Part shown: positions 12,138 through 32,234 of the stretch, piece after piece | How the letters are laid out: every line of letters begins with the position of its first letter | Position numbering within the stretch: position 1 is the first letter of the stretch | Assembly (NCBI GenBank): GCA_018238155.1 | Contig: JABCTZ010000036.1 | Coordinates: forward strand, 192,001-256,000 | Direction: 5' to 3' | Source: Candidatus Heimdallarchaeota archaeon | GTDB taxonomy: Archaea; Asgardarchaeota; Heimdallarchaeia; JABLTI01 | DNA length: 64,000 nt | The notes under the pieces: generated by a model | Database searches by the model: none | What the model was told of the DNA's origin: nothing | Seen by the model: the letters and a program-made list of their open reading frames with translations, nothing else | Program-made: the position numbers and the translations under genes

Positions 12138-12755
12138 TTGAAAGATAAAGAAATAGTTCGACAAGGATATAATGAAATTGCTTCACAATATCATGCTGCA
12201 CGAAATGAAGAGCTAGCTGAGATGGAATTATTACCTGATTTTATGGAATTAATTCCTAAAGGTGGCAAAGTTCTAGATGCTGGATGTGGTGGAGGGCATC
12301 CTTTTACAAAATTACTGAGCAATCATTTTGATGTTCTTGGTGTAGATTTTTCAGAAAAACAAATAGAATTAGCAAAGAAAAATGCTCCTCAAGCAGATTT
12401 TCGATGTTTAGATATGACTAAATTATCCTTTATTGATGAATATTTCAATGGAATCTTCTCTTACTATGCGATAATTCACATTCCTCGAGAAGAACAGTAT
12501 GATTTGCTAACCAATTTTTACCGAATGCTAAAACCAAACGGAGTCGCACTATTAACATTTCATAGTAAGGATGATCCCGGTTCGTATTTCGATGATTTTT
12601 TTGGCACCAATATGTTTTGGAGCGGTTATAATTCTGAAACAAATATTGCAATGGTTAAGAAAGCTGGTTTTGAAATCATTTGGTCTAAATTTATTGCTGA
12701 TAGTTTGGGTGATTCTATTCATCATTTTATGCTTCTTGAGAAAAAGAGCAAATAG
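12138..12755 (+). CDS. Class I SAM-dependent methyltransferase
   Basis: VLDAGCGGG motif I, GVDFSEKQ, YAIIHIPRE, LKPNG. Confidence 0.9.
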   Translation: MKDKEIVRQGYNEIASQYHAARNEELAEMELLPDFMELIPKGGKVLDAGCGGGHPFTKLLSNHFDVLGVDFSEKQIELAKKNAPQADFRCLDMTKLSFIDEYFNGIFSYYAIIHIPREEQYDLLTNFYRMLKPNGVALLTFHSKDDPGSYFDDFFGTNMFWSGYNSETNIAMVKKAGFEIIWSKFIADSLGDSIHHFMLLEKKSK

Positions 12756-19591: not shown

Positions 19592-22500
19592 ATGAAACTA
19601 CGGTTGAAAAAACTTATGTGTAAAATCAAAATTAAAAAAGAAAAACTGGAACTAGAAAGTAAAATTACTGGTGATGGTTTAGAAAAGAAAAAAGATAACA
19701 AAGATAAAGCACCGAAAAAGAAAAGGGAAAAAGTTTTCTTTAAGAGGTTAGGTGAATTTGTCGTTAGAAGATATAAAATAATTCTAATAGTTAGCTTACT
19801 TTCTTTAGCATCAGCAATATATCCTGCATACCTTTTGCAAGGAGAATTGAAATACAATGATCAAGATTTTCTTCCTCAGAACCTTGAAAGCAGTATTGGC
19901 ATTCAAATTCTTGAGGATCAGTTTGATTCAAATATTTCAAGACTATCAACAATTATTGTTATAGATTCTGACGAACTTATTAGCTCGGAAGATAATCTTG
20001 CATATATTGAAGCTTTAACTCAAGGAATAAGCGATTCCAATTTTACGGATGATGTTGCAAGAGTTGATAATATCGTTTCAACTTTCAATGAGTATAATTC
20101 AACATACTGGTCTGAAATGAATCAAGCACAAGCTGTAATTAATGAAATGCTGGTAAATAATTTAACTTATGCTAATGCAGCAATTCACCAAGCAGCTCAA
20201 GAATTAAATACTACAATGAAACAAATTGCCGGTTTGTATCTAATGACTTGGTTTAACTTTTCACGCACTTATTATTATGGTCATTACGATTCGAATCTAT
20301 TCTCAGTTGGTCCTTTGAATTCAACAGTTTTACAAACTATTGCTTTAGATACTAATTTCACTACTGGATTTGCTATTGCACCAGAATATGTAAGTCTGGT
20401 TTATAATTATGCGAACTCCTTAGGAAATCATGCATTTGTAAATGACGTTGTTGTGAATGACTTTGCATTAAATATTGCCAATATGTCATTATTTTATGCT
20501 TCAAATATGACTCTTGAAGAGTATCAAGAACAGCTTTATCCATTACTTGACATGTATTACCAATATTGGAAACAAAGTTTTCAACAAACAATTACTATAC
20601 CAGGTGTAAGCATAGTTAATGGTACCTCATTGAGTGAAAATCTGTACGATAATTCCACAATACCTAATGCTTATGTCAGTCAAGGAACAACTTTAGGCTA
20701 TCTTCAGATGGTAAATAATACCGCATTTCAAAATATCGATATTAGAAACATGATACTCTCTCAAGCGAGCGAATTCTTTGATCTATCTGATCCTCAAATT
20801 ATGGCTTTTCTTAGTAGTGAATACTTAGAAACAATAATTGAAGCAGTGTATGATTTGGGACCAAATCCATCGCAACTTGCAATTCAAGCATTATCTTCAT
20901 CAATAACTGAACAGATCATTCAAGGAATAATTTTAGCCAATCCTTCCATTCCTTCCATTGAAGAATTTTGCACAAGTCCTCAAGTATCAAATATTACTCG
21001 ATGGTTCTTAAGTACAGATGGTAAGTGCTCTATTTACTTGGTATCATATGATGTTTCGAGATACTCTTCCATTGAAGAAAAAGATCGAGTATTAGTTGCA
21101 GCAGATAAATGGATAGGAGAATATTCTCATCAACTAATTTCTGATATGAATTTAACTCAAACGAGAATTTATCATACTGGTGAAATATTCATAACAGAGA
21201 GTATAACAACGTCCTCAGGAGAAGCTGCAGGTAGCATTGATATTTTTGCCGTTGTTTTTGTTGTAATAGCTTTACTACTTATTTTCACTAGCCTAATTGC
21301 ACCTCTAATCCCATTACTTACAATTGGAATTGCTATTGTAATCTCTTTTGCATTTCTCTTCTGGGTATCAAAAGCTATGGATATTCATTACTTAAGCACT
21401 CTCATTTTGACGATTATCTCATTAGGAGCTGGTGTTGATTATTGTATCTTTATTTACTCTAGATATACTGAAGAACTCAAAAGAGGTAAACCCAAAGAAG
21501 ATGCAGTAAAAATTGCTATTGAACATGCAGGAGAATCAGTTTTCCATTCCGGGTTAACAGTGATGGTTGGATTTGGAGCTCTCATTATACCTGATTTCCC
21601 AATGTTACGAAGTCTTGGTATTGCAATGTTAATTGGTGTTGCTTTTTCAATAATGGCTTCGATATTTATTGTTCCATCTTTGTTAATGCTATTAGGAAAT
21701 GCAGTATTTTGGCCTAAACAACTGAATACTATTCTTCGACCGCAAAAGTGGTTCAAGAAGAAAAAAGCTATAGCTATTGAACAACCCGAGGAACAATCTG
21801 AAAATGTTCCTGATGGTCAAGCAATCCAGAAGACCAAATTGATAGAAGAAGAAATTAGTAAACCAAAAAGAAAAGATAGTTTATCAATACGCATTGGAAA
21901 ATTCGTCACGAAAAATGGTCTTGCTATCTTTTTATTAGCAATTGTATCTATTGCTCCTTTGGTTTATTTCACCACACAAATGAAAACAAGTACTGATTTC
22001 ATGCGAATGATGCCTTCAGACTTTGAGCCTAGAGATGCTTCTGATATTTTGACTGAAAAGATGGATTATGGTAATCCAATAGCCGTTAAACTATTATTTA
22101 CAAATCTAGATCAAGAAGTCCTCTCTCGAGAGACACTTATTGACACAGAAAATTTATGTATACAAATCCTTTCACAAGAACATGTAAAGACTATACGGAC
22201 AGTCACTAGACCATTAGGTACAAATTCAACATCATTTGAAAATCCCGCAATGTATTCAAGTTATCTAAGTATAATGGATGATTTCGTAGGAAAAGATAAT
22301 CATACTTTCTATATGGAAATTTACTTAGATATTGATCCCTATTCAGACGAAGCAAATAATTATGTAGGTAACTTGCCTGATTTTATAGATGAAGCAATAT
22401 CTCAAGAAGATTTAACATCTCTTACAAACGCTGACCATTATGTCATGGGTGTTTCTAGAACTTTTTATGAAATGAATTTAGTAACTACTCAAGCATATCC

Positions 22501-23266
22501 AATCGTTATTCCTATCGTGATAATAGGTGTGTTTTTCGTATTACTCTTCCTGTTTGGATCCTATTTCACTCCAATTAGATTGATACTCACAATTGGTATG
22601 AGTATAGCATTTACTTTGGGGATGTTGTATCTAGTATATGGAATTGGTTTAGGCGCACCAATATTCTGGCTTCTTCCAATAATGCTATTTTCCATTTTAA
22701 TGGGGTTGGGCCTGGATTATGATATCTTCTTGGTATCTCGAATCAAAGAGTATTGCCAAGCAGGAATGACGGATAAAGATGCTATTATTCACGCTTTGGA
22801 TCATACTGGAACAATCATTACATCATGTGGATTAGTGATGGCTGCAGCATTCAGTAGCCTAATGTTCACTGAGCTCTGGCACATCAACGAACTAGGATTT
22901 GCATTCACAATATCAATCTTAATCGATGCGACAGTAGTTCGTCTAATTCTTGTACCATCAATAATGGTGTTATTGGAAAAATTCAATTGGAAAGGACCCA
23001 AAAGATTGCAAAAAGTACATCGCGATCCAAAAGTAACTGCAGTAATGAAAATTTTAGGTGATAATATCGGCATTGAAATTTTCAGTCCTGAATTAAAGAA
23101 ATCTCTTGAAGATATTGTCGATCAATCATCTTCTAGTACTACGGTTGAGGAGTTGATAGATAATATGCAACCAACATTGATACAGTATATCGATGAGAAG
23201 AAATTGACAACTGGAATAACTAATCTTATGACTACTAAATTGAACGAAATTGCATTGAAATCGTAA
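19592..23266 (+). CDS. MMPL/RND-family membrane transporter with large extracytoplasmic insertion
   Basis: GAGVDYCIFIYSRYTEE and GLGLDYDIFLVSRIKE motifs; two 1+5 TM repeats; many N-x-S/T sequons in the loop. Confidence 0.92.
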   Translation: MKLRLKKLMCKIKIKKEKLELESKITGDGLEKKKDNKDKAPKKKREKVFFKRLGEFVVRRYKIILIVSLLSLASAIYPAYLLQGELKYNDQDFLPQNLESSIGIQILEDQFDSNISRLSTIIVIDSDELISSEDNLAYIEALTQGISDSNFTDDVARVDNIVSTFNEYNSTYWSEMNQAQAVINEMLVNNLTYANAAIHQAAQELNTTMKQIAGLYLMTWFNFSRTYYYGHYDSNLFSVGPLNSTVLQTIALDTNFTTGFAIAPEYVSLVYNYANSLGNHAFVNDVVVNDFALNIANMSLFYASNMTLEEYQEQLYPLLDMYYQYWKQSFQQTITIPGVSIVNGTSLSENLYDNSTIPNAYVSQGTTLGYLQMVNNTAFQNIDIRNMILSQASEFFDLSDPQIMAFLSSEYLETIIEAVYDLGPNPSQLAIQALSSSITEQIIQGIILANPSIPSIEEFCTSPQVSNITRWFLSTDGKCSIYLVSYDVSRYSSIEEKDRVLVAADKWIGEYSHQLISDMNLTQTRIYHTGEIFITESITTSSGEAAGSIDIFAVVFVVIALLLIFTSLIAPLIPLLTIGIAIVISFAFLFWVSKAMDIHYLSTLILTIISLGAGVDYCIFIYSRYTEELKRGKPKEDAVKIAIEHAGESVFHSGLTVMVGFGALIIPDFPMLRSLGIAMLIGVAFSIMASIFIVPSLLMLLGNAVFWPKQLNTILRPQKWFKKKKAIAIEQPEEQSENVPDGQAIQKTKLIEEEISKPKRKDSLSIRIGKFVTKNGLAIFLLAIVSIAPLVYFTTQMKTSTDFMRMMPSDFEPRDASDILTEKMDYGNPIAVKLLFTNLDQEVLSRETLIDTENLCIQILSQEHVKTIRTVTRPLGTNSTSFENPAMYSSYLSIMDDFVGKDNHTFYMEIYLDIDPYSDEANNYVGNLPDFIDEAISQEDLTSLTNADHYVMGVSRTFYEMNLVTTQAYPIVIPIVIIGVFFVLLFLFGSYFTPIRLILTIGMSIAFTLGMLYLVYGIGLGAPIFWLLPIMLFSILMGLGLDYDIFLVSRIKEYCQAGMTDKDAIIHALDHTGTIITSCGLVMAAAFSSLMFTELWHINELGFAFTISILIDATVVRLILVPSIMVLLEKFNWKGPKRLQKVHRDPKVTAVMKILGDNIGIEIFSPELKKSLEDIVDQSSSSTTVEELIDNMQPTLIQYIDEKKLTTGITNLMTTKLNEIALKS

Positions 23267-23355: not shown

Positions 23356-23766
23356 CTAAAAAAAAAGTTCAAAAAGTTCCTCTATTTGCTTGAGTGCTCT
23401 TTTTGCAGGGATAACTGCTAGTCCGGCTTTTTTTGCTTTAATCCCTCTAAATTTCATTGCCATAGTAAAATTTTCTGAGCGAGCAATTAATAAACTTCCT
23501 TGCTCTGTTCTTATATTCATATGTCTGAAAGTATCTTCGGGATTGCCTTCAATGCTTTGTAGAGCAAGCAATGTACTGATACTCTTTATTGTGTCAATTA
23601 GTAGGGCTGCTGTTCCTTCGACATTTATAGAACCTTTATGCTCGTGTACACTACAACAAGGTAATCCTTCTTCTGTTGTAAGAACTATATCTGATGAGCC
23701 TGCTCTGTCCATCAAATCACGGAGAATTTTTTCCGTTAGCTCGTTTATTGAAGCACTTTCATCCAT
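23356..23766 (-). CDS. Roadblock/LC7 domain protein
   Basis: IVLTTEEGLP, MNIRTEQGSLLI, KAGLA..PAKRALKQI roadblock pattern. Confidence 0.75.
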   Translation of the reverse strand: MDESASINELTEKILRDLMDRAGSSDIVLTTEEGLPCCSVHEHKGSINVEGTAALLIDTIKSISTLLALQSIEGNPEDTFRHMNIRTEQGSLLIARSENFTMAMKFRGIKAKKAGLAVIPAKRALKQIEELFELFF

Positions 23767-24163
23767 ACCAATACCCCGAATTATAATAATTAATTTGCTC
23801 TCTTAATTTTTTAACTTTCTTCAAATAATCAAATTACTTCTTACTATAATTAGTTTTGTATATAATCAAAAGTTGTATGCGATGGATCAAATTCATCCTT
23901 GGGATTTTTAAGGTTGGAAATATGAATTTTAAATTTTGCTTTTTTTTGGACAATGGTTAGAAATTAATCAACTGAAATTTATTAAGTATAAAAAATTTTA
24001 AAAATAAAATACAAGAGGGATAGCTCCTCTTATTCTCTTTTCTTACGGTTGAATTATGTAAAATTTCTGAAAAAAATCATTAAAATTTAATGATTAAAAC
24101 AGAACGATTTTTTAGCGCGCTTATAAAAAAAAAAGACTACTCTTACACAAACTCCTTCACTAA

Positions 24164-24919
24164 CTAAAATAATAATGGATAAGCAAGCTCGTGCAAGATT
24201 TCATATTTCTTTGGATCAAAATCTACTTCATCTAGTAATTCATTCAAGTAAGTGTACTCGAATTCATTTAATGCCACTGGGAAACTCTTCTTATCAATTT
24301 CCTCTTTTTGTATAGCAAAGAAATTTAGTAATAACGGACCAAGATATCCTGTTTCTACATAAATTTGAACTATCCAGTGGAAATAATGCATTAGTTCTTT
24401 CAGCGTTGAATTTTCGATTGCTTCTGCAATGATACTATAAGAAGTCATCAAAGCTGCCCTTCTAGTGAGATAGTCTTTAGTTTTTCCTACAGAAATCAAT
24501 GCCGCTAATAGTTTAAGATCTGCCCAACTTGAAAGTGCAATAATAACTGCATATTGTAAATCAGCTTTACTTTCTGTCAGAATCTTTAGCAATATTGGAA
24601 GAGAATCGCTATGACCTATTTTTCCTATTACTTCAATTACAGCGAGTTTTTTCGCTAGAGAATCTGATTTGAGTTCTATATGCAGTTGTTTTACTAAATC
24701 ACTTGAGGGTTTCTTCTCGTATACTCTAGCAATAGCCATTGAACAAGCATTTCTAACATTCCATGATGGATCTTCTAACCCGTCAAGTAATTTATCAAAG
24801 GACGCTTGTCCGCCAACTTCGAGAAGGGTTAAAGCTCCTTTAACACGATCAATCTCTTTTTCTGAGGTTAATCTTCTCTTTGCTATTCCTCTTTGAAATA
24901 CTCGTTTGATAAAAGCCAT
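24164..24919 (-). CDS. HEAT-repeat protein
   Basis: LLDGLEDPSWNVRNACSMAI, LAVIEVIGKIG...LPILLKIL, LTRRAALM. Confidence 0.8.
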   Translation of the reverse strand: MAFIKRVFQRGIAKRRLTSEKEIDRVKGALTLLEVGGQASFDKLLDGLEDPSWNVRNACSMAIARVYEKKPSSDLVKQLHIELKSDSLAKKLAVIEVIGKIGHSDSLPILLKILTESKADLQYAVIIALSSWADLKLLAALISVGKTKDYLTRRAALMTSYSIIAEAIENSTLKELMHYFHWIVQIYVETGYLGPLLLNFFAIQKEEIDKKSFPVALNEFEYTYLNELLDEVDFDPKKYEILHELAYPLLF

Positions 24920-24921
24920 GA

Positions 24922-26520
24922 TTAACTGCTCTCCTCTTGTTGAGTAACTATCTCATCAATCAATACACGAACTGAAGCTAGCTTTGATTGACTCATTTTG
25001 TTCAAATGGCTATAGTCAACTTCCTTGCGTATTTTTGAAGTCCCATATAGCACACCTGTTGCAACACTAGTTTCTTTTTCTTTTGCTTGTTCTTCTTTTT
25101 GAGCTCTAACGAAATCTAACAACTCTTTTGAGATATCAATTGCTCGAGTGTAAATTGGAATGTCCCACGGTGACATTGGATTGTCATCTAGACTGCCCAC
25201 TGAGAGAAGTGTTCCCACAACCATCCTGTCTAATTTTTTAAACATAATAATATCAGGGAAACCTGGTGTTGGCATTTTGAAATTTTGACGATAGAGCAAA
25301 CTGTGGTTATGAAGTATTAGTAACTGTTCCAGATTAACCGATTCATCATCAATTTCGAATACGTAAATTGGTTTTGAATCAACTTTAACATAGCCAAAAA
25401 ATTGGAATGCTTTGCTACTTTCTAACCATTGACCAACATTGACTACTTGGAAACGATGAACAAATTTAATGTAATCATCAATCTGATCCCATTCTCTTTC
25501 GTAGATATTCCATGTTTTTCTCCAATATCCAGTTGAGTCTGCATGCCAGTAGACATTTGTAGATTGAGTTCTATCTCTAACGTCCTTGATGATTTTTCTT
25601 GCTTCTGGACCCCCACCTACTTTATTAAGAAGGTCGAGATCACCGTTCATTTTAAGAACTTCTTGAATGATTTCTCTTGGTTTATCCAATTTATCTTCAA
25701 AAGCTCTTTTGATTAGTTCAAGAGAGAAATGGTTCATTGGTGGTCCATAAATTGGTTTGAGTAAACGTGGCAGTGTATTGAATTTGTATTCTCCTTTTTC
25801 GAGAATTTTTGTGGCTATTTCTGTATGGATGTAATTTGCAAAGGCTTCTATTAGAATCCCAGTAAGATTCTTCTTTTGCACAGCCTCTGCTCGCCTGTTA
25901 AGAAAAGTAATTATTTCCAAAAGAAAGTTCTGGAAAAGGGATGTTTTTCTTGAGCTTTCAGGTGGGAGATAAAAATCTTGTACTCCAAATGTAGAGAGGA
26001 GGCGTATAACAGCGATCATATCTTGGAAATAAGCCAAACCCCAACCTATTTGACGATCTTCTTTCAAGCCATAAGCATTATTCATCATTAGTTCCTTAAT
26101 GATCATATCCATACGATAAATTTGTGTGAGCATTTCACTATCATTTGTAGCAGATTTTTCAGCAAAATATGCATGAGCAAATGCATGAATAAACATAACT
26201 CTCAAAGAGAAATCTCTTTCAGGGCTTCCTTCAAGTTCGAAGGGAAGACTCAAGTAAATCATTGTAGGCTTACTTGAGAAAACTGAAATACATTCATCTG
26301 CCAAGTAATTCCTCGCTCGAGATTTTCTCAAATTTTCAACCATTTCTTGGGAAAGCACCGCATGTGGGCTTCCACCTAATTCCATTACTTGGTAGAGACT
26401 ACTGTGAAGCTCTGGATCAATAAATACTAGTACTTTATAGTCTTCTGGTGTTTCACCTACAAATTCCTCGAAGTCTTTTCGAGCTTGTTTATAGATTTCA
26501 ACTACTCGTGGATTGTCCAA
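24922..26520 (-). CDS. Divergent SpoVR/YcgB-like protein (zincin-like HxxxH...E motif)
   Basis: PHAVLS...LADECISVFSSKPTMIYL...VMFIHAFAHAYF and TGILIEAFANYIH parallel the SpoVR motifs PHWSFG...LAYEIVINSNPCIAYL...LVMAHxxGH and TQVMNEGWAxFWH. Confidence 0.6.
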   Translation of the reverse strand: MDNPRVVEIYKQARKDFEEFVGETPEDYKVLVFIDPELHSSLYQVMELGGSPHAVLSQEMVENLRKSRARNYLADECISVFSSKPTMIYLSLPFELEGSPERDFSLRVMFIHAFAHAYFAEKSATNDSEMLTQIYRMDMIIKELMMNNAYGLKEDRQIGWGLAYFQDMIAVIRLLSTFGVQDFYLPPESSRKTSLFQNFLLEIITFLNRRAEAVQKKNLTGILIEAFANYIHTEIATKILEKGEYKFNTLPRLLKPIYGPPMNHFSLELIKRAFEDKLDKPREIIQEVLKMNGDLDLLNKVGGGPEARKIIKDVRDRTQSTNVYWHADSTGYWRKTWNIYEREWDQIDDYIKFVHRFQVVNVGQWLESSKAFQFFGYVKVDSKPIYVFEIDDESVNLEQLLILHNHSLLYRQNFKMPTPGFPDIIMFKKLDRMVVGTLLSVGSLDDNPMSPWDIPIYTRAIDISKELLDFVRAQKEEQAKEKETSVATGVLYGTSKIRKEVDYSHLNKMSQSKLASVRVLIDEIVTQQEESS

Positions 26521-27895
26521 GTCTCATACTCTCCGTAATGATGGTTTTTGCTAGTACATCCATCCTTGATGGATTAATTATTACTGGATATGCGATACCT
26601 CGCAGGGCTCTTCTTGTATCTCTCCAGAGATCCGTGTGTCGTAATCGCTCTGATCCAATCATAAAGTAGGATACTTTCCAAGTTCTACTTCTGTCTCTTA
26701 CAACTTCTCTAAGTAAGCTGTTAAGTTCAATGTAACAATTCCGTGCAACAGGATCTATTACTTCCCGTTCTTCTTCAAAATAATGCGATAAACTTGTTGA
26801 TGGTTTTACATTATATCCCGGAATCAGCTCATTTGGGCGTCCATCTGTGACAATGATGATGTGGATGTCTCTATTTTGAGTGTTTTTCTTAATACGCGCA
26901 TGATCTATTGCTGCTCTAATTGAAGCACTCATTGGAGTTCGTCCTTTCGCTTGTGCTGTTAATAGAAATCGTTCCAATTCTCCTTCTGAAGAAACTATTC
27001 GGCGATTCTTGGAAATAGGAACAACTGCAGTTCTGAATGCTCGCTGGTTTGTTCTTCTTGATCTGCCTTGTTTCTTCAAGTAATAGAAGATTGCCAGAGA
27101 AGTTAAGAGAGCACCTTCAAGTCTAGAAAAATGTGTTCCTTGTACTACATTTCTCATAGATTGAGAAATATCAACAGTAAGATAGATCTGTGCATTTCGA
27201 TCTTTCTTCATGATGACGATATCATCTGTATCAATAGATTTTGGTGGAATAGATTGGGAGGTAAGAATTGAGTGTTCGAATGTCTTCTTTTTATGGATTT
27301 TACCTCGAGGTCTGACAATTGTTTCATTTACAGGCCTAGCTGGTAATTGCCTAGTTAGCCAGTTACCAAGTTGGTTTCCTAAGAAATCCATGACTTCCTC
27401 ACGTTTTATCCTCATCTTATGACCAAAACGATCAGTAATTTCAATGTCTGTTAATTCTTCCAGAGTACGTAATGACTCTGTCAATTGTTTTTTGTAATCT
27501 GCTGTACCTTCGAATCCTTTCAGATGTTTTTGAATAAAGGACTCAATTTCCTCTTTCGTTTGCAGTTCACCCATGTTAACTTTCAATAGAGCATCAGGTA
27601 AAGCTTCATTGCCTAGATACTCAAGTATTTCAAGTTCCCGGATAAGATCTTCTTCTTCCATGGGTTCCATTGGTGTAACAAGCAATCTTCTGCGGATATT
27701 TTTTACTGCAACAGCATTCTCAAGAGACATACCTAAAACTAGGGCTTCTCGAGAGCTTTGCCCTTTACGGGGGTCTCGCCATTTTTGCAATACGCTTGCA
27801 GCATCTGCGAAGTCAAACACAAAATCGGGGTCTCGCCAAAGTGTCAATGGATCCGAAAATCTCTCTCGAGTTATCATGTGTAATCTATGAGGCAT
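26498..27895 (-). CDS. vWA-domain protein, YeaH/YhbH-like
   Basis: MIDAS DISQS, GRTP, VTDGRPN; upstream REEVMDFL and GKIHKKKT...DDI resemble YeaH pre-vWA motifs. Confidence 0.75.
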   Translation of the reverse strand: MPHRLHMITRERFSDPLTLWRDPDFVFDFADAASVLQKWRDPRKGQSSREALVLGMSLENAVAVKNIRRRLLVTPMEPMEEEDLIRELEILEYLGNEALPDALLKVNMGELQTKEEIESFIQKHLKGFEGTADYKKQLTESLRTLEELTDIEITDRFGHKMRIKREEVMDFLGNQLGNWLTRQLPARPVNETIVRPRGKIHKKKTFEHSILTSQSIPPKSIDTDDIVIMKKDRNAQIYLTVDISQSMRNVVQGTHFSRLEGALLTSLAIFYYLKKQGRSRRTNQRAFRTAVVPISKNRRIVSSEGELERFLLTAQAKGRTPMSASIRAAIDHARIKKNTQNRDIHIIIVTDGRPNELIPGYNVKPSTSLSHYFEEEREVIDPVARNCYIELNSLLREVVRDRSRTWKVSYFMIGSERLRHTDLWRDTRRALRGIAYPVIINPSRMDVLAKTIITESMRLGQSTSS

Positions 27896-27953
27896 TGTGT
27901 ATGCGCTCCATTTCTTGTAAATATTAATAAATATCCAGTATTTCCTGGATATT

Positions 27954-29516
27954 TTAGATATGATCGATTAATAGCAATTGTTCATAGCTTGGTTTCAATT
28001 GCTCGATAACTTTTTCTTGGGTTTTCTTTGCTTGTTTGCCAAGGTTTTCATATTTGATGATTATTTTTATCAATTCATCATCAGTTAATGCTCTCATTTT
28101 ATCAATATCCTCAGAGATGCTCTCAACAGTGGTTAACTCTCCTTCAGATTTGATTTCTCTACGAAGCATTGTTTTTACTTCTTGGACAGCATCATTGATT
28201 AAGTTTCGTGGAATATCGAAGAGTTCAACAAGTCTCTTTGCATCATCCAATGTAAGTATAGCAATTTCATTTTCTACATAGAACTGATCTTTTCGTAGCA
28301 CAGTTTCACCAATTAAACTGTAGAGTGTACGTAAATCAACATGAGGTGTTTTTTCTGGATCATGAATATCAATCAGTGATTTGAAAAACATGTCTCGAGT
28401 AACTTTTTTACGAGCATATGCTTCAGATTCTCCTGCTTTCAATGAATTTGGTATGGACAAATCAGCAAGTAATCCGATGAAATGGATAGCTAGTTTACTG
28501 ACACCTTTAGAGCCAAATGCTTTTGTCTTTTCAAGTAAAGAGACAAGCGCTGGATTTGCAGTCATATTATTTAGACAGAGCGTGAGATGTTCTTTGAACA
28601 TATCTTCAACGATTTTTACTCGTTCATGTTTTGTTCTTGCTGGCCATAAAACTTCGGGAATACGGTTGATTATTGGTTGCGCTTCTTCACCGAAGACACT
28701 CAAGGGAGCATTTGAAGTAAAGATCATTGCACCATCTATAAAAGCAGGACGACCTTGAATACTGTATTTAATTCCACTTGGATCTTCCAAGAAACCCATT
28801 AATGCTTCAAGGAAATTCAATGGTAATCTTTGAATTTCGTTTACAACAACAAAACCTTGAGAGAGAACACCTACTTTGTGTGCCATTGGAGAGAAGGTAG
28901 TACTTGTTTCTCCTCCAAATAGTTGCTCAAGATTTTCTACACCTGCAAGAAGCATGTAAAGACCTTCTGGATCATTTCTGGGGTCAATTTGTGCTACATT
29001 GACAACTGTTTTTTCTGCTTTAACTGCATGTAATGCTTTGACCATCATTGCAGATTCTACTTTAGCAACATCTGAACTTTTATTCAGATTAATGTCTGAA
29101 CCTGTAACTTTCTTGAGTGATTCGCTTATAGTCTTTTGACAGAAAGGACAAAGACTCTTCAAGACTCCTGCAGAAGCTTTGGGATCCTTTTCAAAGGATT
29201 CAGCAATATGAATGAGATATCCGGCGTCTTCATTGAATGGGCAGTTATTAATGTGCCATTTCTTTTCATTGATTTCATGAGTAAGATGCTTAAGCATAAC
29301 TCTCGCAAAAAGAGTTTTAGCTTCACCTGTAGGTCCAATTAGAAGCACTTTGCCTGAAACTGCTATCTTATCCATGACAATACCTTTTGAGTGTTCATTT
29401 CCACGAACTGCTGGATCGTCATTAATTCGTTTTCTTAGTTCGGGGTCATTCAAAAGTCTTCTAACAGAGCACCCAGAATACCCTTTTTTCGCTAAAGAGG
29501 CAATTGTTACTAACAT
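27954..29516 (-). CDS. AAA+ ATPase of PrkA/YeaG / Mg-chelatase-related clade
   Basis: Walker A LIGPTGEAKT, CPFNED...LCPFC insertion, Walker B variant VVVNE, sensor-1 IFTSN, R-finger IINR. Confidence 0.75.
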   Translation of the reverse strand: MLVTIASLAKKGYSGCSVRRLLNDPELRKRINDDPAVRGNEHSKGIVMDKIAVSGKVLLIGPTGEAKTLFARVMLKHLTHEINEKKWHINNCPFNEDAGYLIHIAESFEKDPKASAGVLKSLCPFCQKTISESLKKVTGSDINLNKSSDVAKVESAMMVKALHAVKAEKTVVNVAQIDPRNDPEGLYMLLAGVENLEQLFGGETSTTFSPMAHKVGVLSQGFVVVNEIQRLPLNFLEALMGFLEDPSGIKYSIQGRPAFIDGAMIFTSNAPLSVFGEEAQPIINRIPEVLWPARTKHERVKIVEDMFKEHLTLCLNNMTANPALVSLLEKTKAFGSKGVSKLAIHFIGLLADLSIPNSLKAGESEAYARKKVTRDMFFKSLIDIHDPEKTPHVDLRTLYSLIGETVLRKDQFYVENEIAILTLDDAKRLVELFDIPRNLINDAVQEVKTMLRREIKSEGELTTVESISEDIDKMRALTDDELIKIIIKYENLGKQAKKTQEKVIEQLKPSYEQLLLIDHI

Positions 29517-29563
29517 TTTTCGTTACACTTCCAAAATTATCTATTGTTCTTCTATTTTTAAAT

Positions 29564-30118
29564 TTATTTTTTCTCTCGTTTAGATTTTTTTGCTTTCAGT
29601 TTCGATGATTCTTTTTTCTTCAACATTTTTGGTTTTATTCCTAAAACTTCAATGTAATCATCTAACCAGTTAAAACAGCTGAGTATATCTTCTGTTTTAT
29701 TTTCATGTATTTCCATTACATTCCATAATCTATCCGTTAATCTGATTAAGGAATAAGCTTCGATTATTTCTGAAGATGTTAAAGCAATAGCTTTATCTGC
29801 ATTGTAACTAGCAATCAATACTGGAATGTTTTTTGTAGCTTCATTCCAAACAAAATATTCCCAGAGATATTCCTTAATTCGAGAGAGTTCTTTCGTTTTT
29901 GTAGAGTTAATTAAGAATACAGTACCATCAGTTTTTTTGAGAAGAGCTTCACGTAAGCCGCTCTCGTAATCTGGTTCTTCCAAAGAAAAAGTATGTGTTG
30001 GTATTTTTTCTTTTGGATCCTTTACAGATTCTTTTATAACATCCACTATATAATCTCTCGTTTCCGATTTTTCTCCAATAAATAGAATATGTTTTGGCGG
30101 TTTAGTACGTTTGAACAT
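29564..30118 (-). CDS. Arf/Arl-fold pseudo-GTPase (degenerate G motifs) with Lys-rich tail
   Basis: TDGTVFLINS, IPVLIASYNADK, EIIEAYSLIRLTDRLWNV, CFNWL match the Arf C-terminal half; no GxxxxGKT, DxxG or NKxD. Confidence 0.7.
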   Translation of the reverse strand: MFKRTKPPKHILFIGEKSETRDYIVDVIKESVKDPKEKIPTHTFSLEEPDYESGLREALLKKTDGTVFLINSTKTKELSRIKEYLWEYFVWNEATKNIPVLIASYNADKAIALTSSEIIEAYSLIRLTDRLWNVMEIHENKTEDILSCFNWLDDYIEVLGIKPKMLKKKESSKLKAKKSKREKK

Positions 30119-31139: not shown

Positions 31140-32234
31140 TTATTTCTTCTTTTCAGCTTTCATTCTGGAAGCTGCAATGAGCTCGAATCCTTGAGCGTTA
31201 CACATTACTGGATTGTCAGGTACGACTACTTCTTCTGGTGATTTAACGATATTCTCTTTCCACATCATCTCTTTTAGAACATCACCAAAGACATAGGCTC
31301 CACCACCTGTCAATATAACTCGTTCTATCCATGCATCGGGTGGTAAAGTTCCAAGTAATCTTGAGGTTTCATCAATAATAATTTCAGAAATATTTTGAAT
31401 ATAATATTCCTTGACTTCTGAAACATCGTATTGTTGTCCACCAACCATAACAGCTTTTAGATTCTTCTCAATTGTTTTCATTAAATCGAAAGGTCTAATG
31501 ATTTTACCAGTTTGGTCCTGCAACGTTCGAGCCATACGTGTTGTTAAAGTATCAACTGCTTCCTCTAAACTACCACTTGCAGTTCTCATTAAACGCCCTT
31601 GATAAACAGTAAGGATGTCAGTAGAACCATGACCAATATCTACAATAATAGCGTCTACAGCTCTGCTTTCTCCAGAGGATTTTAAGATTTGATAGTAAGA
31701 TCCGTAAGGTTCTGGTAATACAAGACATTTTTTAACGTTGACATTGTAGTTGTGACTTTCGCCTGTAGCATCATTTTTAACGTTGATTTCCATCTCTTCA
31801 GACAAGCCCTTAGAAAGTGTGGACATCTCTTCTTGGGATGTTGCAACAGGTACTCCAGTAGCAATGAGAATTTCTTCCCCATCTCCCTTTATGAAAAGGG
31901 AGAGAGCTGCTTTAATAGCTATGACAGCATCTTTGATGCTTTTCATCTTACCTTCAGATGCTAAAGGTCGTTTGATTTCGCTTTGCAAACGAGCTAATTC
32001 TCCAACAAAGAATGATTTACCGTTTTCTTCTAATACAAGGTTGTTCTCGAGTGACTTGTCTAAAGTCATACCAGTCCATCCAGGATTTGGATCACCAATA
32101 ATTGATGGAATTTTCACTAAATTTTGACCGTTGTTCGATGATATTTTAATAGTGCTTGTTCCGAGATCTATCCCTACACTACGTAATGTTTTCTTAGACA
32201 CATTTTGTACCTTCTGTTGTTTTCTAAAATTCAT
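31140..32234 (-). CDS. Actin-fold ATPase, ParM/StbA (Ta0583-like) family
   Basis: Phosphate-1 GIDLGTSTIK, connect-1 ATGVP/LPEPYG, phosphate-2 VDIGHGSTD, adenosine LTGGGA, connect-2 NAQGF. Confidence 0.88.
   Translation of the reverse strand: MNFRKQQKVQNVSKKTLRSVGIDLGTSTIKISSNNGQNLVKIPSIIGDPNPGWTGMTLDKSLENNLVLEENGKSFFVGELARLQSEIKRPLASEGKMKSIKDAVIAIKAALSLFIKGDGEEILIATGVPVATSQEEMSTLSKGLSEEMEINVKNDATGESHNYNVNVKKCLVLPEPYGSYYQILKSSGESRAVDAIIVDIGHGSTDILTVYQGRLMRTASGSLEEAVDTLTTRMARTLQDQTGKIIRPFDLMKTIEKNLKAVMVGGQQYDVSEVKEYYIQNISEIIIDETSRLLGTLPPDAWIERVILTGGGAYVFGDVLKEMMWKENIVKSPEEVVVPDNPVMCNAQGFELIAASRMKAEKKK

Follow-up and report, generated by a model that had tools for sequence, protein, structure and literature searches.

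A Heimdallarchaeota operon whose core is probably a diverged, kinase-less relative of the PrkA-YeaH-SpoVR module, with an Arf-derived protein added in most lineages

The module formed by the AAA+ protein PrkA (YeaG), the von Willebrand factor A (vWA) protein YeaH (YhbH; DUF444), and SpoVR (YcgB) is widespread in bacteria and has been linked to starvation survival and sporulation; to our knowledge, it has no accepted mechanism, and we know of no solved SpoVR structure. We analysed a 64,000-nucleotide window from a Candidatus Heimdallarchaeota archaeon (assembly GCA_018238155.1, contig JABCTZ010000036.1, positions 192,001 to 256,000 of the forward strand), in which five co-oriented genes at positions 24164-30118 make up an operon whose core is probably a very diverged, kinase-less relative of this module, with an Arf-derived protein added in most lineages. 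High mutual cofitness of YeaG, YeaH, and YcgB has been reported for six bacteria, and most bacteria encode the three in one operon (bioRxiv 10.1101/072470). A PrkA structure has been solved (PDB 9xip), and a 2026 study reported negligible kinase and protease activity of B. anthracis PrkA in vitro (PMC13001217).

The five genes, from the 5' end of the operon to its 3' end, are as follows.
29564-30118, minus strand: putative Arf-derived pseudo-GTPase of 184 amino acids (aa) with a lysine-rich C-terminal tail (open reading frame (ORF) listing, Pfam PF00025).
27954-29516, minus strand: AAA+ ATPase of 520 aa with a PrkA-type N-terminal domain and a helical C-terminal part (ORF listing, hhalign).
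26498-27895, minus strand: vWA protein of 465 aa in the position of YeaH/YhbH, with a metal-ion-dependent adhesion site (MIDAS) in its C-terminal half and an N-terminal half of unassigned fold (ORF listing, alignment).
24922-26520, minus strand: protein of 532 aa with a predicted SpoVR fold and a TTG start codon (ORF listing, AlphaFold2 (AF2) model).
24164-24919, minus strand: HEAT-repeat protein of 251 aa (ORF listing, Pfam HEAT_2).

The junctions from the Arf-like gene to the HEAT gene are, in order, 47 bp, 58 bp, a 23-bp overlap, and 2 bp; the start of the 532-aa gene thus overlaps the vWA gene by 23 nt, and the HEAT gene begins 2 bp after the 532-aa gene. The translations contain the motifs GPTGEAKT, CPFNED, LCPFC, VVVNE, DISQSM (MIDAS), HAFAH, IEAFANYIH, and GKIHKKKT. 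An earlier reading of this stretch from its letters alone (the original prediction) had described five co-oriented genes with these coordinates, junctions, and motifs, all of which proved exact in the ORF listing and translations. Public records label all five products 'hypothetical protein', a scan of the five proteins against NCBIfam returned matches only far below threshold, and a Pfam scan matched the 532-aa protein to no model. A literature search found no description of this cluster, in keeping with the original prediction, and among the papers in the library searched none linked Asgard archaea with PrkA, DUF444, or SpoVR.

The order AAA+, MIDAS-vWA, SpoVR-fold is common to the Heimdallarchaeota operon and the PrkA-YeaH-SpoVR module of bacteria and haloarchaea, and in both the last two genes overlap. 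This order and the vWA/SpoVR gene overlap are seen in the canonical operons of Sinorhizobium, Comamonas, Thermomicrobium, and Pontibacillus. For profile comparison, reference PrkA, YeaH, and SpoVR sequences were taken from E. coli and eight plasmid or megaplasmid records (Proteobacteria, Bacillota, and Thermomicrobium), and hhalign was run with enlarged Heimdallarchaeota alignments against the reference alignments. In the resulting 3 × 3 matrix, each Heimdallarchaeota family aligned best with its expected PrkA, YeaH, or SpoVR counterpart, with off-diagonal probabilities of at most 6.6%. The signal appeared only with alignments on both sides: against the single E. coli YeaG, YeaH, and YcgB sequences, probabilities stayed below 3%, and profile searches of the E. 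coli K-12 genome with the AAA+ and vWA alignments gave no matches. Compared with the bacterial module, the Heimdallarchaeota operon always adds a HEAT gene, usually a pseudo-Arf gene, and in this genus a Roadblock gene.

Between the AAA+ family and PrkA, hhalign gave a probability of 96.6% (E 5e-10, 180 columns), rising to 97.2% (E 3.5e-11, 180 columns) when the N-terminal domains alone were aligned. The true pair scored 85, whereas reversed and column-shuffled templates scored 24 or less, and the alignment begins past Walker A. Control alignments of the AAA+ family reached 78% with MoxR (E 2e-5) over 45 columns at the P-loop and 31% with LonB (E 5e-4, 51 columns), and PrkA itself aligned with MoxR at 2% (E 0.022, 149 columns). 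Features common to PrkA and the Heimdallarchaeota protein include a [YF]xIxGCP[MF]xED element after the Walker A helix, a Walker B without Asp (EFxE in PrkA, VVNE in Heimdallarchaeota), and a sensor-1 Asn followed by a (D/N)R..v..P element. Within the AAA+ family alignment, Walker A GPTGEAKT, the sensor-1 TSN, and the INR arginine are invariant, as is the Asn that occupies the usual Asp position of the VVNE Walker B. Judged from these profile alignments, the AAA+ N-terminal domain is homologous to PrkA beyond the P-loop. Two of the PrkA motif likenesses proposed in the original prediction, CPxxED and LAGVENLEQL with PrkA L.G.vd, were recovered by hhalign; the CPF..CPFC cysteines were not family-wide, being replaced by Ser or Ala in two genomes of family f3.

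No likeness to PrkA was detected outside the N-terminal domain. The Heimdallarchaeota AAA+ protein is about 110-170 aa shorter than PrkA, and the kinase-like C-terminal domain is undetectable in it; family members range from 295 to 557 aa, compared with 599-667 aa for full-length PrkA. Longer fused AAA+ forms (911-2600 aa) were searched for and none was found, which is weak evidence. The lid of the AAA+ AF2 model resembles Lon-type alpha subdomains (Z about 6, VIA-align), in weak agreement with a marginal sequence match of YeaG to Lon. A Foldseek search of the model against the PDB returned noise only, and a PDB profile search with the AAA+ alignment was empty even at E 10.

For the 532-aa protein, the likeness to SpoVR came from its predicted structure. 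An AF2 model based on a 16-sequence alignment reached a predicted local distance difference test score (pLDDT) of 78 and a predicted template modelling score (pTM) of 0.79, and its top three matches in the ESM Atlas were SpoVR clusters carrying PF04293 and PF24755. The match to SpoVR clusters aligned 384 residues between positions 1 and 519 at a template modelling (TM) score of 0.55 (query) and 0.61 (target); the next Atlas matches were Peptidase_MA_2 and DUF2268. The protein is thus predicted to have a SpoVR fold comprising both the N-terminal domain and the SpoVR_C domain. Relaxed hhalign paired SSKPTMIYL of the 532-aa family with INSNPCIAYL of SpoVR, and the EGFA/EGWA pair was recovered as well, both as proposed in the original prediction; of the AH..GH and NEGWA motifs conserved in SpoVR, this EGWA pairing is what aligned, while the His and Glu positions vary in the 532-aa family. 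An ESM Atlas feature search with the 532-aa protein was uninformative (best score 0.81), and in Foldseek no PDB entry matched the model with an E-value of 0.001 or below.

The N-terminal 330 residues of the 532-aa protein also superpose on the catalytic domains of gluzincins (M1, M32, thermolysin) and of TAF2. In a VIA-align search of 48,161 PDB representatives, residues 1-336 of the model matched gluzincin catalytic domains with Z 7-9.1, including M1 and M32 peptidases, thermolysin, LTA4 hydrolase, and the pseudo-peptidase TAF2, and about 40 of 50 rows were of zincin fold. The HxxxH and EGFA-like motifs of the protein lie at the gluzincin HExxH and NEGFA positions. Unlike gluzincins, however, it carries HAFAH without the catalytic Glu of HExxH, has lost the ligands in one subfamily, and continues into a beta-rich, SpoVR_C-like C-terminal domain. 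The positions of the HAFAH His pair and the EGFA Glu vary within the protein family (Q/Y, M/K, V/H/N), their conservation being lost in family f3. Because the catalytic Glu is missing and the ligands vary in f3, peptidase activity is unlikely and metal binding does not appear to be a family trait. The SpoVR likeness claimed in the original prediction therefore stood at the level of the fold, in both SpoVR domains, but not in the putative metal ligands, as HxxxH is not conserved, and not in Pfam or NCBIfam matches.

The vWA protein has an intact MIDAS, with D242, S244, S246, T320, and D351 invariant in the family alignment. Pfam gave weak VWA_2 and CoxE matches, and a PDB profile search with the vWA alignment gave generic vWA matches only. 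With YeaH, hhalign gave 36% (E 4e-4) over 128 columns and a score of 39 against nulls of at most 20; the alignment spans the vWA domain and about 30 residues upstream, and the isolated vWA parts aligned with probabilities of 14-36%. An I..D[IL]R motif ahead of the first vWA strand is common to YeaH and the Heimdallarchaeota protein. The original prediction had likened GKIHKKKT to a YeaH motif GNIDKKRT; GNIDKKRT does occur in one Bacillus YhbH, at a distance from the MIDAS similar to that of the Heimdallarchaeota G.I..K.T motif. Apart from these short motifs, the N-terminal part showed no sequence similarity to that of YeaH/DUF444. What held of the claimed YeaH likeness was the intact MIDAS and the position, whereas no DUF444 match and no wider N-terminal similarity were detected. 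The vWA protein is a candidate YeaH relative, argued for mainly by gene position and gene overlap.

Several results weigh against a relationship of the core to the PrkA-YeaH-SpoVR module. Pfam and NCBIfam models of PrkA, DUF444, and SpoVR recognised no family member at E values up to 10. AAA_PrkA (PF08298) gave no match at E up to 10 in any of the 12 AAA+ family members searched, and a PF08298 search of the whole source genome omitted the AAA+ gene even among weak matches. The PrkA C-terminal kinase-like domain (PF06798) had no Pfam match in the AAA+ family, and the C-terminal part (residues 300-520) aligned with the PrkA C-domain at only 0.3% (E 0.2, 12 columns), so that the PrkA likeness proposed originally was upheld for the N-terminal domain but not for the C-terminal one. 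The AF2 model of the AAA+ protein is poor in the ATPase core (pLDDT below 50 at residues 176-292), and the ESM language-model features of the protein were nearest to archaeal AAA_5/Mg_chelatase/Sigma54-type clusters (score 0.96). For the vWA protein, PF04285 (DUF444) matched none of 14 family members, the N-terminal part showed no similarity to the DUF444 N-terminal part (hhalign 0.4%), and the score with YeaH may reflect generic vWA homology. For the 532-aa family, PF04293 matched none of 16 members, and the hhalign signal with SpoVR was weak (21%, E 1e-3, score 37 against nulls of at most 20), lying around EGFA/EGWA.

These results leave room for a different relationship. AAA+ genes also lie beside MIDAS-vWA genes in MoxR/ChlI-type pairs (RavA-ViaA, CbbQ-CbbO, NorQ-NorD, and BchI-BchD), and, as the main alternative, the operon could be a generic AAA+/vWA chaperone pair of the MoxR/ChlI/Rv0958 type (like RavA-ViaA, CbbQ-CbbO, NorQ-NorD, or CoxD-CoxE) that stands beside a zincin-like protein by chance. 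The ESM features of the AAA+ protein and its MoxR alignment agree with such a pair, NCBIfam weakly places the vWA protein with cobaltochelatase and BchD, and the Pfam matches of the AAA+ protein are limited to AAA_5, Sigma54_activat, and Mg_chelatase (E 1e-5 to 0.05). However, these Pfam matches are at the P-loop level (residues 53-92), Mg_chelatase scores 13.6 bits against a cut-off of 20.3, and the MoxR likeness is likewise confined to about 45 columns at Walker A, whereas PrkA aligned over its 180 columns beyond the P-loop. Searches of the source genome with the MoxR AAA_3 (PF07726) and Mg_chelatase (PF01078) models do not return the AAA+ gene, and its Walker B has NE rather than DE. MoxR/ChlI-type systems lack a SpoVR-like or HEAT partner, while here the 532-aa protein has a predicted complete two-domain SpoVR fold, more than a zincin domain, and the gene order and vWA/SpoVR overlap mirror the PrkA operon. 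We therefore consider a chance neighbourhood of this kind unlikely.

To examine the conservation of the operon, we compared 55 Heimdallarchaeota loci from species-representative genomes, including the complete genomes of Candidatus Heimdallarchaeum aukensis and H. endolithica and one Kariarchaeota metagenome-assembled genome. The AAA+ gene was followed by the vWA, 532-aa, and HEAT genes, co-oriented and contiguous, at all 38 loci with enough downstream sequence, and in 43 of 52 genomes the Arf-like gene immediately preceded the AAA+ gene. Synteny of the Arf-like and HEAT genes with the triad in related genomes, on which the original prediction depended, was thus observed, and the five-gene arrangement is far beyond chance. 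Flanking genes were conserved solely inside the genus. The 532-aa protein was present in 50 of 301 sampled Asgard genomes, all belonging to one class and five families (f2 28/29, f1 8/10, f3 9/11, f6 3/3, and f5 1/1); it was found in none of the 21 genomes of family f4, and the AAA+ profile had no match in five f4 genomes of 93-99% completeness. In the five families the cluster is single-copy and near-universal, with AAA+ identity of about 50% between families and varying, non-island contexts. An exhaustive profile search among 1.84 billion representatives found just 20 proteins related to the 532-aa protein; the AAA+ protein had 106 relatives, unnamed or 'hypothetical' save for one labelled 'MoxR-like ATPase' by the Joint Genome Institute (JGI).

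Two distant lineages retained part of this arrangement. In both, the vWA gene, the 532-aa counterpart, and a longer HEAT protein (at loci L078 and L080) are still adjacent, without a pseudo-Arf gene; the AAA+ gene shares their contig, lying either alongside them in divergent orientation or at a distance of about 40 kb. From the synteny across near and distant lineages, the core consists of four genes: the HEAT protein is a core subunit and the pseudo-Arf is a frequent, lineage-specific addition. The original prediction had suggested recruitment of the machine by a pseudo-Arf adaptor, but the pseudo-Arf cannot be an obligatory recruiter: 9 of 52 genomes lack it beside the core, as do the distant lineages. 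Where it is missing, the slot upstream of the AAA+ gene holds unrelated genes, namely a ParB_N-like gene (L022, 5058-5789), an FKBP-type isomerase gene (L023, 13444-14193), or a DUF389 gene (L025, 4366-5361). In four genomes whose pseudo-Arf gene is not adjacent, a close homologue was found elsewhere, at full length in three of them; in the cluster-less f4 genomes, the Arf-like search returned only half-length paralogues.

Other genes were observed at the distant clusters. TnpB/Cas12f-like (OrfB_IS605) genes occur at L043 (3580-5184, plus strand), between the AAA+ and vWA genes, and at L080 (56-1348, minus strand), in or beside the cluster. L080 also carries a full-length Ras/Roc/Arf-type small GTPase gene (12167-12748, minus strand) about 4 kb from its pseudo-Arf-less cluster.

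The Arf-like protein matched PF00025 at 35.8 bits (cut-off 22.3; E 7e-9), with residues 60-156 corresponding to profile positions 79-174, that is, over the C-terminal half only. It shares with Arf/Arl GTPases, including Asgard paralogues, the interswitch-distal strands and helices of this half with the L..L..R.W and WL motifs, but its switch region is shortened, G1, G3, and G4 are gone, and it is operon-linked to an AAA+ machine. The nucleotide motifs GxxxxGK[ST], DxxG, and NKxD are absent in all nine aligned homologues; the protein from the source genome has GEKSET, no DxxG, and YNAD in their place. Conserved positions in the C-terminal half of the homologues are W86, W91, LSLIRLTDRxW, and NWL. 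The claim that this Arf-fold protein is dead as a GTPase is therefore supported by its sequence, and as the ORF is intact everywhere, it is apparently a maintained pseudo-GTPase. Several ordinary Arf-like paralogues are encoded in the same genome.

The HEAT protein matched HEAT_2 at 51 bits (cut-off 27.7; E 1.8e-13). By Pfam and NCBIfam it is of the general prokaryotic HEAT_2/PBS type and not specifically eukaryote-like, as the original prediction had described it. Its weak NCBIfam matches to NblB, CpeY, and CpcE (E 5e-5 to 1e-3), together with weak matches of the vWA protein to a putative cobaltochelatase (E 5e-5) and BchD, would suit a chelatase or cofactor-insertion system in which a ChlI/ChlD-like motor and a CpcE/NblB-like HEAT lyase serve a tetrapyrrole or metal cofactor. 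These scores, however, are far under the curated cut-offs (22 against 779 bits and 23 against 300 bits), no ChlH/CobN-like large subunit is encoded in or near the operon, and across 13 related genomes the Mg_chelatase model had no match reaching E 1e-10. Since a chelatase would also leave the SpoVR fold of the fourth gene unexplained, this reading is very improbable. A role in anti-virus defence or conflict, with effector-like accessories serving an AAA+/vWA pair, is scarcely credible: AAA+/vWA pairs and degenerate peptidases do occur in conflict systems, and one distant genome has its cluster interrupted by the TnpB element, but PADLOC had no match for four of the five proteins and only a marginal one for the HEAT protein, and the single-copy, near-universal occurrence in the five families (f2, f1, and f3 among them), the AAA+ identity between families, which looks like vertical descent, and the non-island contexts speak against it.

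Downstream of the HEAT gene, two further features were identified.
24125-24134, minus strand: stretch of ten T (coding strand) roughly 30 nt past the HEAT stop codon (read from the sequence).
23356-23766, minus strand: Roadblock/LC7-domain protein of 136 aa, 397 bp downstream of the HEAT gene (PF03259).

Archaeal transcription terminates at oligo-T tracts, and the T-run after the HEAT gene is likely to be the end of the transcription unit. In public sequencing runs, no RNA data set was listed for the operon, and the rows that appeared were sediment metagenome DNA with small shares. The Roadblock gene follows the HEAT gene, past the T-run, in this genus only; all seven orthologues match PF03259 (best E 7.5e-6; 0.0027 for the copy in the window), and outside the genus no conserved co-oriented gene was found after the HEAT gene. 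Since small GTPases elsewhere have Roadblock proteins as partners, a link between the Roadblock protein and the pseudo-Arf is conceivable. The Roadblock protein is thus a possible genus-specific accessory of uncertain membership.

If the core is a relative of the PrkA-YeaH-SpoVR module, its parts may work together as follows. The PrkA-type AAA+ protein would form an ATP-driven ring, to which, or to a client, the vWA protein would couple through its MIDAS. The SpoVR-like protein might hold a peptide segment in its peptidase-derived groove; holding rather than cutting is proposed because it lacks the catalytic Glu and one subfamily has lost the metal ligands. The assembly would be scaffolded by the HEAT protein. 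The pseudo-Arf could act independently of nucleotide as an adaptor or regulator, in this genus perhaps together with the Roadblock protein. If the bacterial module is a guide, the complex might remodel or regulate target proteins in starvation or another growth transition. We infer an ATP-driven remodelling or regulatory complex as the function of the operon. A more elaborate arrangement, in which the pseudo-Arf, with the Roadblock protein in this genus, is wired through the HEAT scaffold to the PrkA-type remodeller in a five- to six-component machine whose role is distinct from that of the bacterial starvation and sporulation module, is a tentative and rather doubtful extension. If true, it would present an archaeal Arf-derived pseudo-GTPase as the nucleotide-independent adaptor of an AAA+ machine.

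The retention of the AAA+, MIDAS-vWA, and SpoVR-fold parts without the kinase domain suggests that these three, and not kinase activity, may be the conserved working core of the PrkA module, and structural work could use the kinase-less archaeal version as a natural minimal system. The obligatory HEAT subunit and the frequent pseudo-Arf also bear on how the small-GTPase fold may have been repurposed in the archaeal lineage nearest to eukaryotes.

Profile searches of the source genome found no canonical PrkA, DUF444, or SpoVR. Canonical SpoVR was above the cut-off in one of the 301 sampled Asgard genomes, on short contigs. This canonical PrkA-YeaH-SpoVR stretch (L035/L041, G286:C578) encodes proteins 45-63% identical to those of E. 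coli and, given this identity and the short contigs, is probably bacterial contamination; its SpoVR ORF is 766 aa long and matches in two pieces, as if split by an inserted element. In another Asgard lineage, ORFs of about 1300 aa (L036, G009:C142; L037, G041:C5; L038 and L040, G031) match the SpoVR profile around positions 251-330, the EGWA region, at E 1e-4 to 1e-5, and these ORFs may carry a zincin-like or SpoVR-like segment.

Two further genes were observed near the operon. One gene away from it, at 31140-32234 on the minus strand, lies a gene for an actin-like protein (ALP_N and archaeal MreB-like_C, with a weak Actin match) that is syntenic across the genus at about 87-90% identity. Convergent with the Roadblock gene, at 19592-23266 on the plus strand, is a gene for a 1224-aa MMPL/RND-type transporter with a weak sterol-sensing-domain match.

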